From: a virus
Taxonomy: Duplodnaviria; Caudoviricetes
IMG/VR virus record: IMGVR_UViG_2859564202_000001
Direction: 5' to 3' (one strand)
DNA length: 64,000 bases
Shown here: positions 42,432 to 51,690 of the stretch, piece after piece
Layout of the letters: every line of letters begins with the position of its first letter
Numbering within the stretch: position 1 is the first letter of the stretch
Position numbers and translations under genes: made by a program
Notes under the pieces: model-generated
Databases searched by the model: none
What the model saw: only the letters and a program-made list of their open reading frames with translations
Told to the model about the DNA's origin: nothing

Positions 42432-43955
42432 TTAAGCATCTTCAATACGCCTAAAGGCTCGCGCGACTTCTTTATCAAAGTGACCCTGGGCGAGATCACG
42501 CCAATGCGGAAGCTCCACCAGCATGATGCGGAATGCTCGGGTGGTCTTATATTTACCCATAGCAGACAGCGGATCATCCTCTGTGCCAGATAGAGCTTCT
42601 TCACCCTCAGAGTAGACACGCGACTGCTCCACTCCTGCTTGCGCGCGCATAAGTGCAATATCTTCCTGCGACAACGCCTCAATCAACACAGTGCCATCGA
42701 CAGCATTAACCAAGCCGTTGTTAGCAGTCACCCGGAAATTCGGATCTTGAGCAAAAGCGTGCAGGCTCTCATCATAGGCTGCAGTGAGCTCATCTTCGAG
42801 TGAGTCCTGCAGGATGTGGCCGAATTGATCAGCCAGCATATCTCGTGACACCTTGCCTTCGGCATAACGCTTCAACCGCATGTCAGCGAGCTTATGTTCT
42901 GCATTCTCCTGATCGTGAATGAATTCATCATTGACCTCTGCTTCTTCAGACAGAGATTTCTTTTTCACCTTCGTACCAGTAGCCACGGGGAAGCCCTGAG
43001 CACTGTCTTCGAACTCATCATCAAAAACGTCATATTCAGACTCCATGAAATCACGAGCATTCATGACAGACTCATCCCCCTCGTCATAATCCGGCGTGTC
43101 ATCGTACTCATCTTTCGCGATCATCGTGTCCACGATGTCCATGATTTCTGCTGAATACACATCCATATCCAGGCGTGCAATATCAGAGTCATCGAGCCCA
43201 GTCGCCTTTTTATAAATATCGACGGCACGCTGAGTACGAATCGACTGCGCCATGCGCTTTTCCAGCATCGCCATAAAGTCCGGTGCATTTTGATTCACAT
43301 CGAATTCATTAGCGCTCGACAGTGTTGGAATAGTCTGCAACGAGTATTCGCGACCCGGTTGGATAATCTGGTTAGCAAACAACATGAACGACATCGGCCA
43401 AATCGTTTCATTGCGTGACCACACCGGATACTGACCCGCACGGAAGACGATGGCGTTCTGCGATGGCAGAGTATTTAGGTCATTATAAGACACCACCGGC
43501 TCTTTTTCAGTTGCAGACGTGTACGACACTTTACCCTCGGTGCGCATAACTAACTGTGCCAAGTCACGGGTTACGGTCTTTGAATTTCTGCGTACAACAT
43601 GTCGCTCACCTGACCAATCCACCAACGTCTTAATCATTGTTTCGTCTGTGGATTTCAAGAAGATAATGTTGGACGTGTTGTGGGTCGGGATCATATCGTC
43701 AGTGATGTAGAGATGGTCACGGTCGGCAATGCTGATGCATTGCACGGTATCGCGGCGGGAGAATTCTACAGAGACGATTTCATTGTCTGCTGCGGGCACG
43801 TCGAGACGTGCCCGATCTGCTGGATCGAAGTTGTCGAGGATCTCTGGCGCCCGCGCTGCGACACCAGGCAGAAACACCTTATCCCCTCGTGCCAGCATCG
43901 CTTTAAGCTCTGCCGTGGTGACGATTCTGCGCTCGCCAGCAAGTGTTTGCGTCAT
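42432..43955 (-). CDS. virD4: Split-intein C-half (93 aa) fused to the C-terminal 414 aa of a VirD4/TraG coupling protein
   Basis: VQCISIADRDHLYITDDMIPTHN|T intein blocks F/G, then TSNIIFLKSTD...SG; own GAAGGGG RBS. Confidence 0.88.
   Translation of the reverse strand: MTQTLAGERRIVTTAELKAMLARGDKVFLPGVAARAPEILDNFDPADRARLDVPAADNEIVSVEFSRRDTVQCISIADRDHLYITDDMIPTHNTSNIIFLKSTDETMIKTLVDWSGERHVVRRNSKTVTRDLAQLVMRTEGKVSYTSATEKEPVVSYNDLNTLPSQNAIVFRAGQYPVWSRNETIWPMSFMLFANQIIQPGREYSLQTIPTLSSANEFDVNQNAPDFMAMLEKRMAQSIRTQRAVDIYKKATGLDDSDIARLDMDVYSAEIMDIVDTMIAKDEYDDTPDYDEGDESVMNARDFMESEYDVFDDEFEDSAQGFPVATGTKVKKKSLSEEAEVNDEFIHDQENAEHKLADMRLKRYAEGKVSRDMLADQFGHILQDSLEDELTAAYDESLHAFAQDPNFRVTANNGLVNAVDGTVLIEALSQEDIALMRAQAGVEQSRVYSEGEEALSGTEDDPLSAMGKYKTTRAFRIMLVELPHWRDLAQGHFDKEVARAFRRIEDA
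43677..43955 (-). other. IntC: C-terminal half of a class-3 split intein
   Basis: Block F Cys (VQCI), terminal T-H-N, +1 Thr. Confidence 0.88.
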
Positions 43956-45194: not shown

Positions 45195-47015
45195 ATGCCA
45201 ACACTGCTTATTGACACCCATCCGCATCTTGCAGCGCAACTTCTTGACCCTGGTTTAGGTGAACTTCTTACAGCCGGTTCCAACAAAAAAGTGCAGTGGC
45301 AGTGCCCTAAGCACTCCAATCACATCTGGACGGCCTCGGTTAATAACCGCACCAATGCAAAGAACCCGCGCTGCCCCTATTGTGCCGGAACACGAGTGTT
45401 GGCAGGTTTTAATGATCTCGCCACCACTCACCCGCATCTTGCTGTACAGCTGGTTGACCAAGATATTGCCGTCACCATTTCCGCTGGTTCTGGCAAAAGA
45501 CAACTGTGGCAGTGTGTAGTAAACCCAAAACACCAGTGGTTGGCTACGCCAAATAATCGCACGAGTACTAAATCTGCGAGTTCTGGTTGCCCCTACTGTG
45601 CCAACCGAGCGGTATTAGTCGGTGACAATGACTTTGCAACAACCTACCCCGAACTTGCAGCGCAATTAGTAGATCAATCTGCAGCGACAACCTTTACAGC
45701 CGGCCACAACAAGCCTGTTGAGTGGATCTGTTGCAAGCATGAACCACCATTTATCTGGAAAACCTCACCAATTTTGCGTGTACGACAGAACACCCAGTGC
45801 CCTGTGTGCTCAGAGCGAACTGTGGCGCCGGCGCTTAATGATCTTGCAACCACTCACCCTAAACTTGCCGAGCAAATTGCAGATCCTCAACCAAGTGGTG
45901 TGAGCGCCGCGGCCATTATCCCCACCATTAGCAGGGGTTCCCATACGCAATTAACATGGCAATGTTCTAAAAATCATGACCACCAATGGGTCGCCACAGT
46001 AAAGGATCGTGTTCGCGGAACAGACTGCCCCACCTGCGCAAATACAGGAACTTCACGCAAAGAGGCTGAACTTATTGAGGTCATCCGTGCATTATTCCCA
46101 AACACTGATGTCCAGCAAGGTGCGCTCATTAATGGACGTACCGGTAATCAAGGTGCATCGCCGTCAACCGATGTACTCATACCGTCCAAAAATCTCGCTA
46201 TCGAGTTCAACGGCCTGTACTGGCACTCTGAGCTTTTCATCAAAGATAAGCATTATCATGCGAACAAATCAGCTCTCGCAGAACAAGCCGGTGTGCAGCT
46301 CATTCATGTGTGGGAGGACGACTGGAATCTTCGCCGCGACATTGTGATCCGCATGATCGCACACAAGCTTCATGCAACCCATAACCTCAGTGCTGTTTTG
46401 CCTACCGAAACTACTGACTCACGTGTGGCAACCACCGCTTTCGCCCGTACACTCACACTGTCGGTGGTCTCTGGTTCACGCGCTGCTGCATTCTTGAACA
46501 GCAACCATATTCAGGGTGCTGTCTCGGCCACTAAGCACTTTGCCCTGTGCGACAACAACGACGATATTCGAGCACTCCTGTCGGTGCGCTCACCAAAAAA
46601 CAATGCCCGCATGTATCGCAAAAAAGGCACATGGGAAATCCAGCGCTATGCGACACTCGGTAACGTCCCTGGCGGTTTTACTAGGCTGCTGAAGTTTGCC
46701 GAGCACACACTCAACGAACACAGCACAGTACTCAAGCAATGGATCTCATTTTCTGCTGCTGATGTCTCTGACGGCAGCCTGTATCGAACTGCCGGTTTTA
46801 CCGCCGAGCAACAGCTTGCACCGGATTATCGCTATGTCGGTGGCGCAACAGGTTGGCGCCGAACACCCAAAGAAAGCTTCCAGCGCAAACGCTTTAGAGA
46901 CGACCCAGCGTTGCTATGGAACGAATCTTGGACAGAGCACGAAGCAGCGCTCAACAACGAGCTCTACAGAATCTACGATGCCGGCAAAACCCGGTGGGTT
47001 AAAAATGTTGCTTGA
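45195..47015 (+). CDS. Free-standing zinc-ribbon-repeat endonuclease (putative homing endonuclease)
   Basis: Four HPxLAxQ...WxC...W...CPxC repeats, then TDVLIPSKNLAIEFNGLYWHS...IHVWEDDW Vsr/PD-(D/E)xK-like domain and an extra C-terminal domain. TAGAAT 6 nt before the ATG suggests a leaderless transcript. Confidence 0.75.
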   Translation: MPTLLIDTHPHLAAQLLDPGLGELLTAGSNKKVQWQCPKHSNHIWTASVNNRTNAKNPRCPYCAGTRVLAGFNDLATTHPHLAVQLVDQDIAVTISAGSGKRQLWQCVVNPKHQWLATPNNRTSTKSASSGCPYCANRAVLVGDNDFATTYPELAAQLVDQSAATTFTAGHNKPVEWICCKHEPPFIWKTSPILRVRQNTQCPVCSERTVAPALNDLATTHPKLAEQIADPQPSGVSAAAIIPTISRGSHTQLTWQCSKNHDHQWVATVKDRVRGTDCPTCANTGTSRKEAELIEVIRALFPNTDVQQGALINGRTGNQGASPSTDVLIPSKNLAIEFNGLYWHSELFIKDKHYHANKSALAEQAGVQLIHVWEDDWNLRRDIVIRMIAHKLHATHNLSAVLPTETTDSRVATTAFARTLTLSVVSGSRAAAFLNSNHIQGAVSATKHFALCDNNDDIRALLSVRSPKNNARMYRKKGTWEIQRYATLGNVPGGFTRLLKFAEHTLNEHSTVLKQWISFSAADVSDGSLYRTAGFTAEQQLAPDYRYVGGATGWRRTPKESFQRKRFRDDPALLWNESWTEHEAALNNELYRIYDAGKTRWVKNVA

Positions 47016-47597: not shown

Positions 47598-47636
47598 AAA
47601 AAACAACCCCCTAAGGATAATCCTCAGGGGGTTGTT
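47598..47636. terminator. Terminator directly after the IntN stop (probably bidirectional)
   Basis: AACAACCCCCT...AGGGGGTTGTT; U tract on the - strand. Confidence 0.8.
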
Positions 47637-47649
47637 CTGTTTCGACTCA

Positions 47650-47969
47650 TTATGCTGCGCTTGCTGCATCCTGCTCGGCAGGAACCACAATCACTTCCCA
47701 CAAATGCTCATCACAAGCCTCTGTGGTTGAGCCATCTTTACGTGTCACAGTAAATACATCTCGCTCACCCTGTGGGAACACACCGTCAATCTCGCTGACT
47801 GTCCCCTTTGGGGTAAGCACCTTCATACCTGCTTCTGCTTCGCCCATCGTGACCCATCCATCAGGTGTTGCGATCTTCGCCGTCAACGGCTGCGCATTAC
47901 CTTGGAGAATCTTGTCTGAGGCTTCGCCATACACCTGAGTCAACTGCTGCAGTGTCTGCAGAATCAATG
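47650..47969 (-). CDS. virD4: VirD4/TraG exon 3 followed by split-intein N-half
   Basis: (T)LILQTLQQLTQVYGEASDKILQGN continues exon 2 in frame after intron removal, then AQPL... intein block A. Confidence 0.88.
47653..47895 (-). other. IntN: 81-aa N-terminal half of a class-3 split intein
   Basis: Block A AQPLTAKIATPDGWVTMG; block B DGSTTEACDEHLW. Confidence 0.88.
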
Positions 47970-50033
47970 ATGTCAATAGGTAACGCTTTGATCTTATCTC
48001 CACGTTTTCCCCTGACCCACACCGTACGTGCGACTTTCACCGCATACGGCGCTCCATCACTAGAGTTCTTATCCCTCCGGTGACTTGTGACCATTACTCC
48101 TGCTCTCATTACAAGAGCTATCAACGCTTCGATCACTACTTTTCAACACTCGTTCGACTGCTTATTATTCTTCGTCAGTCTACGCAAAACCGCTATCCAA
48201 AAACTTCTTCCTGAAACGGACCACTTACTAATAACTCGCCAATTGATTCTGCTGTTCTCGCCGTATATGGGATCTCCAAAAGTGTTAGCTCTCGGACTAC
48301 AGTAAACGCTCGTTTTCGTCTGTCGTGCTCTTGTTGGATCGCGAAACGACTCTCTCCACCGAAATACTCAACTGGTCTAAAATGCTGCTCACCTTGGCAC
48401 TCAATCAACAACCAGGGCTCGGTATCCTTGAAAACCAAAAAATCATAACTCAGTGGTCCTCCACCAACCCCCACCAAACCATCGAAAGTCTTTTGAGATT
48501 CAAACTGAAAATCATTCTTTAAAAGAAAGTCCCTGACATGTGACTCTTGGATTGATCCGTGCAAACAACCACACGATTGGCTAATACCCTGCCTCAACAT
48601 AATCCCAGCAACAGCATTTTCGGAGCCGCACATACATCGGCACAACCACATTTGAGACCGCCCACCACCAGGGTAAAACCTGTCATCCGTACGAGACAGC
48701 ACAGTCCACTGGTTAAATACCTTGCCAGTCAAATCTTCAAAAACAGCAGTTTCTCGTCGCTGTTCTATGCGATAGCACCCGCACGATATTGACCGACCCC
48801 GCAACAAAGACTGTTCCAATACGTCCCTTGTCGCTCCACACTCGCACTCGCAAAACCACGCCTTAGATAAGCGACCCCACTGCAGCACGTCCTCACCACG
48901 TCGAACAACAGACCATCGACCAAATGTGGAACCAACTAAATCCCTATTCTTTGAAAGCGACTCGATTTTTAGACAACCACACGATTTCGAATCACCATTC
49001 TTCAGTGACCCCGCAGCAAGATCTTTCTCAACACCGCAAGTACATCTGCAATGCCACATGGTGGTTTTCCTTCCTGTGGAGGAAACCCTACTTTCCGCTC
49101 GATCTATGACAGTCCATCGCCCAAACACCTGACCTATGAGATCCTGTAAGTTCTTACCCTGCATCCTTTTACGAACAGTCTCATAACGACGACAACCGCA
49201 CGATGCGGTTTCATCAGCGTTCTTAAATCTAGAGGCCGGTGCATCATACTCCCTGCCACAATCACAAAGACATTGATACCGAACCTCAATCTTGCCACTT
49301 TTGTTTACACGATCGTTAGTGCGATAAAGAACTTTTATATGCCCGAAAGTTTTACCGGATAAATCATTAAACTTTCGTCGCCGATGTTGTTGCGGTGCTC
49401 GTATTGTCATCTCAAACTACTTTCAAATATATACCTTTATTTGTATATATTACCCCTTTTAATTAATTAAACAAGCTTTCAGCCTTGATAACAAGTGGTC
49501 CATTTCACTATAAAGTTATTAAATATTGGCAGCTATTTCACGCCGAATATCTTTCCCAGTTCCGTTTCACCTATCCGTTACATGCTGCCCTTAGGTGCTC
49601 ACTCTGACCCTGCTCGCCTCGGATGTGCCTGTAACACATCAGGGAGGTTCATAAATTCAAGTCTTACTTGTCCCCTACGAGCACTAACGCATTTCTACGC
49701 CGAACAATTCAAGAGCCGTACATTCGCAAGTTCGTCAGTTATCTCACTCGATAACATTCTCACCCTAGGCAGTTTCTGGACACCCGGCATATCAGCGGCA
49801 CATCAGATCACTCTGACGCTTTCGTAGCTACTGTGATCAAATCCCAGCACCTTTACGACCGACCTTCTGCCGACTCTAACGGGCTTTATACAGTTCTATT
49901 TTGTTCAAACCGCATACCGTAGCTTGGTGTGCACATTTCAGGGCGTTACTCCGTCATTCTGTGTATCAATGAAACAGTTTCTTGCAACTTTAAGCTGCAA
50001 GAGCGTAGTTTTTCGCTACGCAACTGGTCGCAC
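47970..50033 (-). mobile_element. Group II intron (2064 nt, class-B-like) without reverse transcriptase
   Basis: 5' GTGCG at 50033; domain V GCGCCGTATGCGGTGAAAGTCGCACGTACGGTGT (48052-48019); domain VI with bulged A 47977; 3' AT end. Removal gives in-frame TTT A|CA TTG. Confidence 0.92.
48193..49410 (-). CDS. Group II intron-encoded putative endonuclease
   Basis: Four DLxGxxFGxxxV...CxCxCG...SCGC repeats plus YDFL...LIECQGEQHF...HDRRK...LLEIPY Vsr-like domain; no YADD or other RT motifs. Confidence 0.8.
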   Translation of the reverse strand: MTIRAPQQHRRRKFNDLSGKTFGHIKVLYRTNDRVNKSGKIEVRYQCLCDCGREYDAPASRFKNADETASCGCRRYETVRKRMQGKNLQDLIGQVFGRWTVIDRAESRVSSTGRKTTMWHCRCTCGVEKDLAAGSLKNGDSKSCGCLKIESLSKNRDLVGSTFGRWSVVRRGEDVLQWGRLSKAWFCECECGATRDVLEQSLLRGRSISCGCYRIEQRRETAVFEDLTGKVFNQWTVLSRTDDRFYPGGGRSQMWLCRCMCGSENAVAGIMLRQGISQSCGCLHGSIQESHVRDFLLKNDFQFESQKTFDGLVGVGGGPLSYDFLVFKDTEPWLLIECQGEQHFRPVEYFGGESRFAIQQEHDRRKRAFTVVRELTLLEIPYTARTAESIGELLVSGPFQEEVFG

Positions 50034-51690
50034 TAAATTGTTGTTCTTGTCCCAGACCGATCGAGAGCATGGTTTCAAATCCCGCAATACCATGACCCTC
50101 ACTCTGAAGGTTTCCCAACTCGTCCAACATGAAACGAGTCTTATAATCCGGCTTCTGATTCTCACGCGTCATATACGAGGAATCGAAGTTCAGATCCACA
50201 AGCTGTTTGATGAGAATCAAAATCAACTTCGCATATTTCATAAGATGCGGAGGCGTTACGAAGAACACTGCCTTAGGCTTCTCCGAATACCGCACATTCA
50301 GAGCCGACACCGCATCAACCATCGCATCAACCTGCTTGATCATGTCATGACCCGGCATATTGATCTGTTCCTGCGTGAGTTGGTCAAGATTCAGTTTCTT
50401 CGTCTTAAACTGCACATGACCTGGAACAAAGTCACCAGCATCGTTTTTCACCAGCTCGATCAGCAGACCATTCTTAATGATCTTCTCATCGGTCACCGGA
50501 TCAGTAATAAACGCACGGCCTTTAAGGTTCGTTTGGTAGCCCTTGGTGAACTTGAAGTACAGAGTCTTGATCAACGTGCCAGAAGTACCATTGAGAATCC
50601 GCAAACGCAGGTACGCAGTATTACTCGGGAACGAGTCTTTAATATAGAACCGCGCCCAACCCTCAACCGACAGCGTGTCATCATGAACAAAATTCTTACC
50701 CAACGGCTTGGTGAACTTGGCGTCACTATACGCATCCCATTTCACCTGTGATCCAACCAGGTTGTAGCGCTTCACATAGGGGGCCGCAAAACGAACACCC
50801 ATGCGCCGTGGAAACGACAATCCGGCCAAGTCAACGTTCTGACTTAGTGTGCCTGAGGTTAACGTTGAAATTGTGGGGTCTGTAAAGAAGGACATCGCTG
50901 TAATCGCGATACCGTAGACCGACGCCATCATTTTTTCAGCGCCACCCATTGCTTTCAGGGCCTTATCTGCGTTGCCCACCAGAGTACGAACACTGGACTT
51001 TGGCAGACCGTCTGTGGCACTAAAGAACAAGGTGAGCATGTCTTTTTCTTTCTCACCCTCCCACAGAAACATTTCGTTCTCTTCGGCCTCTGTCACAGCA
51101 TCCTGGAACATCATGGCTGCATTTTCATCAGTCTCTAAGTTACCGAATTCACCGGCACGTGCACGTTCATTGAGTCGCTCAACGGGATTCTTCAGCTTCT
51201 TTGCCGAAAGCTGCACAAAGAGCTGGTAGCAGTTGTAGAGCGTGACCTTACCCCACATCTGATCAATACGTGTATCAAGCACCTTGGCATCCCAATTCTC
51301 AGCTGCAGCCTGCTTGCGCATCTCGCGCTCCTCTTCCAAATAGAAGTCGATAAGACCATAGGCTGCACGCTTGAAGGCATTGTTGGCCGCATTCGGCCAT
51401 ACCGGATCATCGGCACCGTCCACCGGAAAGAACACCTCTGCGATATTTTCCACATAGGTTGCGCACTTCATCCCGTTACCTTCGCGAGCTGCTTCGGCTG
51501 CTAATCCCAACGGGTTATAAATATCAGTTTTCAGGTTGTTAATCAGGTTAAACTGAACAACCTGAAAACCGCGCTTAGACATCCGAACATAATTTTTCTT
51601 CAGCAACTCGCCTTTAGGGTCGTTGATACACATATTGTTCGGTCGAGTTTCCCTCGTCCACATGTCGATCATTGGCTCAATGTAGGTCTG
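50034..51690 (-). CDS. virD4: VirD4/TraG exon 2 (5' boundary 51690 or 51687)
   Basis: QTYIEPMIDMW...INDPKGEL...YNPL...Walker B FMLDELGNL...GLGQEQQF. Confidence 0.9.

Follow-up and report, generated by a model that had tools for sequence, protein, structure and literature searches.

We found that the 5' end of a group II intron, which interrupts the gene for a VirD4/TraG-like coupling protein in a prophage-like element, encodes a short peptide tail in frame with the upstream exon, and that the last five residues of this tail, YALAA, are identical to the end of the tag that the host's own transfer-messenger RNA (tmRNA, SsrA) encodes. The stretch analysed here (the window) comprises 64,000 nucleotides of the IMG/VR record IMGVR_UViG_2859564202_000001 and corresponds to positions 1840036-1904035 of a single-contig host genome of 3,309,401 bp and 53.8% G+C. 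It is part of a large prophage-like element in a Corynebacterium glutamicum-type chromosome; we take the host to be C. glutamicum ATCC 13032 and the element to be the cryptic prophage CGP3. On balance, and with some reserve, we favour the explanation that the intron-encoded ssrA-like tail marks the product of unspliced RNA for destruction by ClpXP and that it was shaped by selection.

The intron (47970..50033, minus strand, 2064 nt) is inserted in codon phase 1, such that base 50034, the last base of exon 2, is also the first base of the read-through tail (49990..50034, minus strand). In the absence of splicing, exon 2 continues AGT GCG ACC AGT TGC GTA GCG AAA AAC TAC GCT CTT GCA GCT TAA, that is, 14 codons reading SATSCVAKNYALAA and a stop. 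The minus-strand open reading frame (ORF) that results, 51672..49990, is 560 aa in length and ends ...GLGQEQQF-SATSCVAKNYALAA-stop. Within the tail, the YALAA codons TAC GCT CTT GCA GCT occupy 49993..50007 and the TAA stop 49990..49992, both on the minus strand. A first-pass annotation of this DNA had described an in-frame SATSCVAK-NYALAA-stop at this place, and both the sequence and the coordinates it gave (50010-49990) are exact.

The tmRNA tag of the host, as identified with ARAGORN, is AEKSQRDYALAA, and its final five residues are those of the tail. Across all six frames of the host genome, AA ends account for 0.60% and LAA ends for 0.037% of the stop-to-stop frames of at least six codons (n=167,233), and only two of these frames end in YALAA, namely the tmRNA tag frame and the tail described here; the tail exceeds chance and is statistically unusual. 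It carries the terminal Leu-Ala-Ala of an ssrA-type degron, and indeed the full YALAA, while the TAA directly after the last Ala leaves the free C-terminal alpha-carboxylate that such degrons have. It does not arise by trans-translation. As it is encoded in cis, by the intron 5' end in frame with exon 2, and not via tmRNA, the tail is a mimic of the tmRNA tag.

The host also encodes the corresponding degradation machinery, with ClpX (641.8 bits, over the curated cut-off) and two adjacent ClpP genes (ClpP1/P2). In Escherichia coli, GFP-YALAA was robustly degraded by ClpXP and GFP-LAA was not (PMC7652416), which makes YALAA sufficient for the E. coli protease when it is accessible. An LAA-ended tag lowers LacZ in the related actinobacterium Mycobacterium tuberculosis, where a GGG ending abolishes recognition (PMC3613350), and in C. 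glutamicum the native-tag variants AAEKSQRDYA-ASV and -AAV serve to destabilise proteins (PMC4650169). The first-pass claim that YALAA is the end of tmRNA tags recognised by Clp proteases is supported by the host tag AEKSQRDYALAA, by the presence of ClpX and ClpP1/P2 and by the E. coli work (PMC7652416). By analogy with these systems, it is likely that the tail would destabilise a reporter in this host, and clearance by ClpXP of the product of unspliced RNA appears well grounded biochemically.

The assignment of the interruption to the group II introns rests on several features. Rfam group II domains were detected at 49982-49773 (RF02004, 133 bits) and at 48054-47970 (RF00029, 62 bits), and the 5' splice-site consensus GUGCG (intron nt 1-5; 50029..50033, minus strand), the 3' end ...GACAU at 47970 and domains V/VI all agree with the pattern of this class (5' GUGYG, 3' AY). 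The bounds 50033..47970 are fixed by a homolog, P0001, which shares 98% identity in the part of exon 2 that was searched, lacks the intron and reads ...GLGQEQQF|TLILQTLQQL across the exon 2/exon 3 join; by comparison with this homolog, removal of the intron restores the conserved reading frame. The intron holds an ORF of its own (49410..48193, minus strand, 405 aa) that matches no Pfam family and does not encode a reverse transcriptase. A missing reverse transcriptase/maturase is atypical, yet it is not disqualifying for a group II ribozyme. No further copies of the intron were found in the host genome, in 400 genomes of the host's family or among the INPHARED phages, and the matches in a plasmid search were confined to distant domain V/VI regions.

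The tail is embedded in RNA secondary structure. Hairpin 1 (intron nt 13-31; 50003..50021, minus strand) has the stem GCGUAG/CUACGC and the loop CGAAAAA, and encodes C-V-A-K-N-Y plus positions 1 and 2 of the first Ala codon. Hairpin 2 (intron nt 32-54; 49980..50002, minus strand), with the form UCUUGCAGC-UUAAA-GUUGCAAGA, varies in relatives and encodes L-A-A-stop, the stop lying in its loop. A basal stem formed by nt 8-12 (CAGUU) with nt 55-59 (AACUG) encloses both hairpins (49975..50026, minus strand). The tail-coding RNA folds with a minimum free energy of -22.8 kcal/mol (z = -3.4), and in an alignment of 56 related introns 99.2% of the cells for hairpin 1 are paired, while six of its seven pairs show compensatory changes; the two small hairpins that had been noted just after GUGCG are real by the measures of both fold and covariation. 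A common architecture is present in every relative, comprising GUGCGAC-NN-GUU, a first hairpin of 7 bp with the loop GAAAA, a variable second hairpin of 3-10 bp, and AACUG. The tail Lys derives from the conserved GAAAA loop, and Leu-Ala-Ala-stop from the 5' arm and loop of the variable hairpin 2. Because the tail falls within both hairpins, RNA structure constrains it.

Members of the coupling-protein family abound in metagenomes and in viral contigs of 100-470 kb, and many of them carry a homologous intron at exactly the same site and in the same phase. Pooling protein hits with DNA loci yielded 24 distinct tails at this site, 13 of which end in AA: KRYAA, KSYAA, KSCAA, KSRAA, KRRAA, KRCAA, KSMAMAA, SLLAA and NYALAA, several of them in more than one variant. 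The Ala codons GCU, GCC, GCA and GCG all occur in these ends, as does each of the three stop codons. The spellings found for AA-stop are GCU GCU UAA, GCU GCC UAA, GCC GCC UGA, GCC GCG UGA, GCC GCA UAG, GCA GCA UAA, GCG GCU UAA and GCA GCU UAA, and the independent LAA end of the relative L148 is spelled UUG GCG GCU UAA. The stop falls in a loop in some introns and inside a stem in others. We built a tree from intron nt 76-420, leaving out the columns of the trait itself; introns in the AA state are scattered over it, with 8 changes on the drawn tree and at least 3 forced by well-supported branches. The nearest relative of the window intron on this tree (L147) has a tail ending in MAMAA.

We compared these endings with what RNA structure alone would produce. 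When hairpin 2 of the window was shuffled such that its structure and its own base-pair and loop composition were kept, AA-stop appeared in 0.4% of trials and LAA-stop in 0/4000. Across the 24 introns, a structure-preserving shuffle drawing on pooled pair and loop frequencies gave expected counts of 0.04 for AA ends, 1.07 for xA ends and 0.01 for L[AV]A ends, against the 9, 13 and 4 observed, although both shuffles ignore possible tertiary constraints on hairpin 2, a limit that tells against peptide selection. A motif scan of IMG/VR then gave about 50 further distinct introns that have the same 5' architecture and reside in other genes. For the 52 distinct family introns with DNA, the true phase was compared with the 104 wrong-phase readings: AA ends were found in 12/52 versus 0/104 (Fisher p 7e-7), xA ends in 17/52 versus 3/104 (p 5e-7) and L[AV]A ends in 5/52 versus 0/104 (p 4e-3), all p-values being uncorrected for relatedness. 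Long tails in other genes (n=11) include two AA ends (0.004 expected) and four A ends (0.23 expected), as exemplified by KSYSIAA and by KSADMLAA (L233), whose end is spelled CUG GCC GCG UAA and lies in a GUAA loop. As AA and L-(A/V)-A ends in the true phase far exceed both the RNA-only nulls and the wrong-phase readings, we consider selection on the peptide more likely than not.

A parallel to the window's tail comes from an FtsK-like ATPase gene of a 467-kb phage (IMGVR_UViG_3300021431_002946, ~150.2-150.8 kb), where two phase-2 introns, L187 and L191, lie 24 nt apart, with a micro-exon of that length (encoding RNDASVIPG) between them, and have tails ending in EKLVA and EKINYALVA. NYALVA is encoded at intron nt 29-49, in comparison with nt 24-44 for the equivalent residues in the window, which places it 5 nt further along the structure and on different bases. 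The recurrence of NYAL[AV]A is convergence at the level of the peptide and not a matter of shared nucleotides. This convergence and the phase-specific enrichment in the intron family suggest that the tail was shaped by selection, a conclusion that we would call close to evenly balanced. The wider proposal, that a phage-borne group II intron family has repeatedly evolved true-phase tails that mimic ssrA (YALAA, YALVA, MLAA, LLAA and xAA), such that unspliced products would destroy themselves, is put forward tentatively.

As the sequence shows, a ribosome that arrives at the 5' splice site before splicing reads the 14 intron codons and stops at the UAA in the loop of the second hairpin, and the truncated protein carries at its end YALAA-COOH, five residues identical to those added by tmRNA in this host. 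In the mechanism we envisage, which follows the established recognition rules of ClpX, ClpXP1P2 would engage and degrade this product, and little stable truncated ATPase would come from the unspliced gene. Selection on the peptide, acting within the freedom of the variable hairpin, would have shaped the tail.

The most serious competitor holds that the tail is a by-product of RNA structure and chance, in which G-C clamps happen to read as Ala and A/U-rich loops to supply stops, and in which YALAA came from ...YAA-stop via a neutral 6-nt stem extension and was never selected as a peptide; degradation might still follow incidentally. A number of our observations weigh on this side. Base composition and RNA structure clearly contribute to the tail sequence, for the entire tail lies within hairpins 1 and 2 inside the basal stem, covariation in hairpin 1 is strong, and the G-C of the first Ala codon forms closing pairs of that hairpin; AT-rich relatives have Thr at the first-Ala position because their closing pair is A-U and not G-C. 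Nor is an alanine-ended tail universal in the family, being absent from about half of the same-site relatives and from a large sub-family (xATRS) that stops after five residues. The remaining 11 of the 24 same-site tails end in SATC, CAMHYA, ...KHIH, ...KDMD, YTNL, YTKL, ...HELS, YTM, TTTILL, CTT and CAAW, many of the introns in other genes are of the xATRS type without a degron-like end, and 9 of 20 introns at other sites end after 3-6 residues with polar ends. The first-pass annotation had proposed looking for an in-frame xLAA-stop in homologous introns. In this strict form the ending is not conserved, being limited to the window and L148 (2/24), and it is the weaker xAA-stop that recurs (13/24). 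When IMG/VR was scanned specifically for GUGCGAC followed by YALAA-stop within 15-45 nt, the matches were phage tmRNA genes, and no further intron was among them. Descent from a single ancestral state may account for the commonest AA form (GCN GCN URR at intron nt 30-38), and the AA counts are for that reason non-independent and the p-values overstate the case. From the family-typical ...YAA-stop, moreover, YALAA takes only one in-frame Ala-Leu insertion in a freely varying stem, an event that is not wildly improbable among a few dozen lineages. What leads us to regard an origin from structure and chance as rather unlikely is that structure-preserving nulls give AA-stop in 0.1-0.5% per intron against 9/24 observed, that AA and L[AV]A ends occur in the true phase only (12/52 and 5/52 against 0/104), that the place of the endings in the structure varies (5' arm/loop or 3' arm/junction), as do their codons and stops, and that NYAL[AV]A is found again in another phase, encoded at non-homologous positions.

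Selection could also have acted on an early stop and on clean termination, and not on degradation, with the intron needing the release of ribosomes before they unfold domain I, with Ala-Ala-stop favoured or tolerated for efficient termination and the likeness to ssrA a side effect. This would fit the fact that seven relatives retain a URR stop at intron nt 36-38, be it in a loop or in a stem, and the many family members that stop even earlier, in hairpin 1; it would also fit the effect that C-terminal residues have on termination efficiency and tmRNA tagging in E. coli. However, it leaves unexplained the Leu, the Tyr and the five-residue identity to the host tag, as well as the LVA and LAA ends of other members, and with the very short polar tails (xATRS) termination evidently works adequately, such that we consider termination as the selected trait improbable. 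The tail would be irrelevant in vivo if the gene were silent in a cryptic prophage or if splicing outran translation. If the element is CGP3, as we assume for the window, a present-day function in this host is doubtful. Silencing of CGP3 by CgpS has been described (PMC5137423). Three raw-read RNA-seq runs gave 0 reads on the stretch, and a contig from the RNA library of run X8 (14.8 kb, depth ~75) spans 47600-54700 unspliced and in one piece, which could reflect either DNA carry-over or an unspliced transcript. The gene family nevertheless keeps intact exons, split intein and splice sites, and appears to be selected for expression. Moreover, bacterial translation normally starts on nascent RNA, in which case synthesis of the 2-kb intron would still be under way when a ribosome arrived at the splice site. 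We therefore see outright irrelevance of the tail as very improbable.

Under the explanation we favour, that of an intron-encoded degron, the tail is best filed as a genome-encoded ssrA-tag mimic in a new, splice-conditional context. With the tmRNA tag it shares the C-terminal YALAA-COOH, presumably the ClpXP receptor, and the marking of an incomplete protein for disposal. The tmRNA tag, however, is added by trans-translation on a stalled ribosome, whereas the intron tail is encoded in cis and made by normal translation to a normal stop. The match is also limited to the last 5 residues (6 for the E. coli tag), the upstream SATSCVAK being set by the GUGCG region and hairpin 1. Genome-encoded ssrA-like degrons, including the LAA, LVA, ASV and AAV reporter tags and the C-motif-1 substrates of ClpX, have the same kind of encoded C-terminal xAA or LVA end, and such ends confer ClpXP-dependent instability (PMC7652416, PMC3613350, PMC4650169). 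The intron tail would differ from them in being conditional, as it would be present on the product of unspliced RNA only and removed by splicing. In Bacillus, C-terminal alanines added by RqcH/RqcP mark aborted translation products (PMC8373112), and the xAA ends seen in many relatives are similar to such an Ala tail of two residues, although RqcH/RqcP tails are template-free and made on split 50S subunits while the intron tails are encoded. In eukaryotes, mitigation of noncoding translation relies on capture by BAG6 of hydrophobic C-terminal tails from introns and untranslated regions (Kesner et al., bioRxiv 10.1101/2022.07.20.500724). There, too, intron- or noncoding-derived peptides act as C-terminal degrons that turn mis-processed messages into unstable proteins, but there the cause is held to be hydrophobicity and a general nucleotide bias, whereas the intron tail is a specific mimic of a bacterial tag, is lodged in a structured ribozyme domain and would address a different protease system. 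In bacterial and phage self-splicing introns, translation usually meets a stop only a few codons past the 5' splice site, as in the many members here with xATRS-stop; the present claim differs in that it concerns the residues spelled before the stop and not the stop itself. In the collection of papers that we searched, none dealt with an intron-encoded degron or with a group II intron in CGP3.

The VirD4/TraG-like gene lies on the minus strand of the window and is split into several pieces. Its N-terminal ORF (54645..53350, minus strand) ends ...AMTRAGKGN-stop, and the first interruption (51687-53356, minus strand), which splits the Walker A motif (AMTRAGKG|...), holds a DUF7487-matching ORF and has no Rfam match even at E = 0.1. 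Read-through into this interruption gives Asn and then TAA, and the unspliced exon 1 product ends ...GKGN, without a degron-like end. Exon 2 (50034..51672, minus strand; PF02534, E = 3.5e-8) is given as the open frame from its first ATG, its true 5' end lying ~18 nt further upstream, near 51690. Exon 3 (47650..47969, minus strand) begins TLILQTLQQL..., runs into the N-terminal half (IntN) of a split intein and ends ...DAASAA-stop, with the intein C-half and the C-extein ~3.7 kb beyond. The two intein halves (47650-47895 and 43677-43955, minus strand) are ~3.7 kb apart, and between them lie a DUF4379 zinc-finger ORF (45195-47015, plus strand) and a membrane ORF.

The AASAA ending of the IntN precursor had been offered in the first-pass annotation as a further, weaker hint of an encoded degron. 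The ending is indeed present in the window (...DAASAA), but it is not conserved among 22 homologous IntN fragments, which end in VPA, VPE, SRR, VEN, IKH, VGQ and similar; the IntN of the closest homolog ends ...VIVVPA, without the window's extra EQDAASAA. We rejected this part of the proposal, as AASAA is unconserved and the IntN fragment is an obligatory substrate of protein trans-splicing and not an aberrant product.

Several further observations concern the intron family and its insertion sites. The 405-aa ORF of the window intron (48193-49410) contains repeated Cys-rich motifs, while homologous introns at the same site encode a LAGLIDADG_3 protein (L151) or unannotated proteins of 385-400 aa (L149, L152 and L155). 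Among the introns with this 5' architecture, 32 have a clear phase and 27 of these are in phase 1, a bias that may reflect either a homing-site preference or selection on the read-through frame. A 394-kb contig (L185) related to the 467-kb phage has only the second of the two introns in the FtsK-like gene. Among the homologs P0001-P0120, the 35 codons around ...SIGLGQEQQFTLILQTLQQLRDVYGDSVDKIVQGN form an insertion hot spot with at least 12 distinct interruption sites and tail types, and the split-intein site after QGN falls in the same region. One widespread interruption type, after VYG, has the conserved tail VMILSTNRVAAYL and is not AA-ended. Two non-homologous interruptions, L156 (LAA-stop) and L157 (CVAA-stop), were untypable by Rfam and were not counted as evidence. 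The matches to the YALAA scan (L326-L331, L333 and L334) are viral contigs with tag frames such as ...NTAYEGYALAA, ...TAYEDYALAA and ...VVIEAYALAA, apparently phage-borne tmRNA genes. An IMG/VR pattern with the window's own GAAAAA loop returned no real introns, and a loose junction-pattern scan of genome contigs gave mostly false positives, the real ones among the matches listed being L027 and L107 (a Lachnospiraceae metagenome-assembled genome).

The persistence of self-splicing introns in bacteria and phages is attributed to their doing almost no harm to the genes they interrupt, and ribosomes that arrive before splicing have been discussed mostly in terms of early stop codons. If our explanation is true, a degron written into the 5' hairpins of a ribozyme would constitute a second layer of damage control, in which a single sequence would provide for RNA structure and for a peptide signal at once. 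Existing ssrA-tag reporters allow a direct test of the idea. It would also mean that the read-through tails of all mobile introns and inteins deserve inspection, and it would provide synthetic biology with a natural splice-dependent degradation switch. For the introns themselves, the tail would be an encoded fail-safe that cuts the cost of intron carriage, a bacterial counterpart of the mitigation of noncoding translation in eukaryotes.

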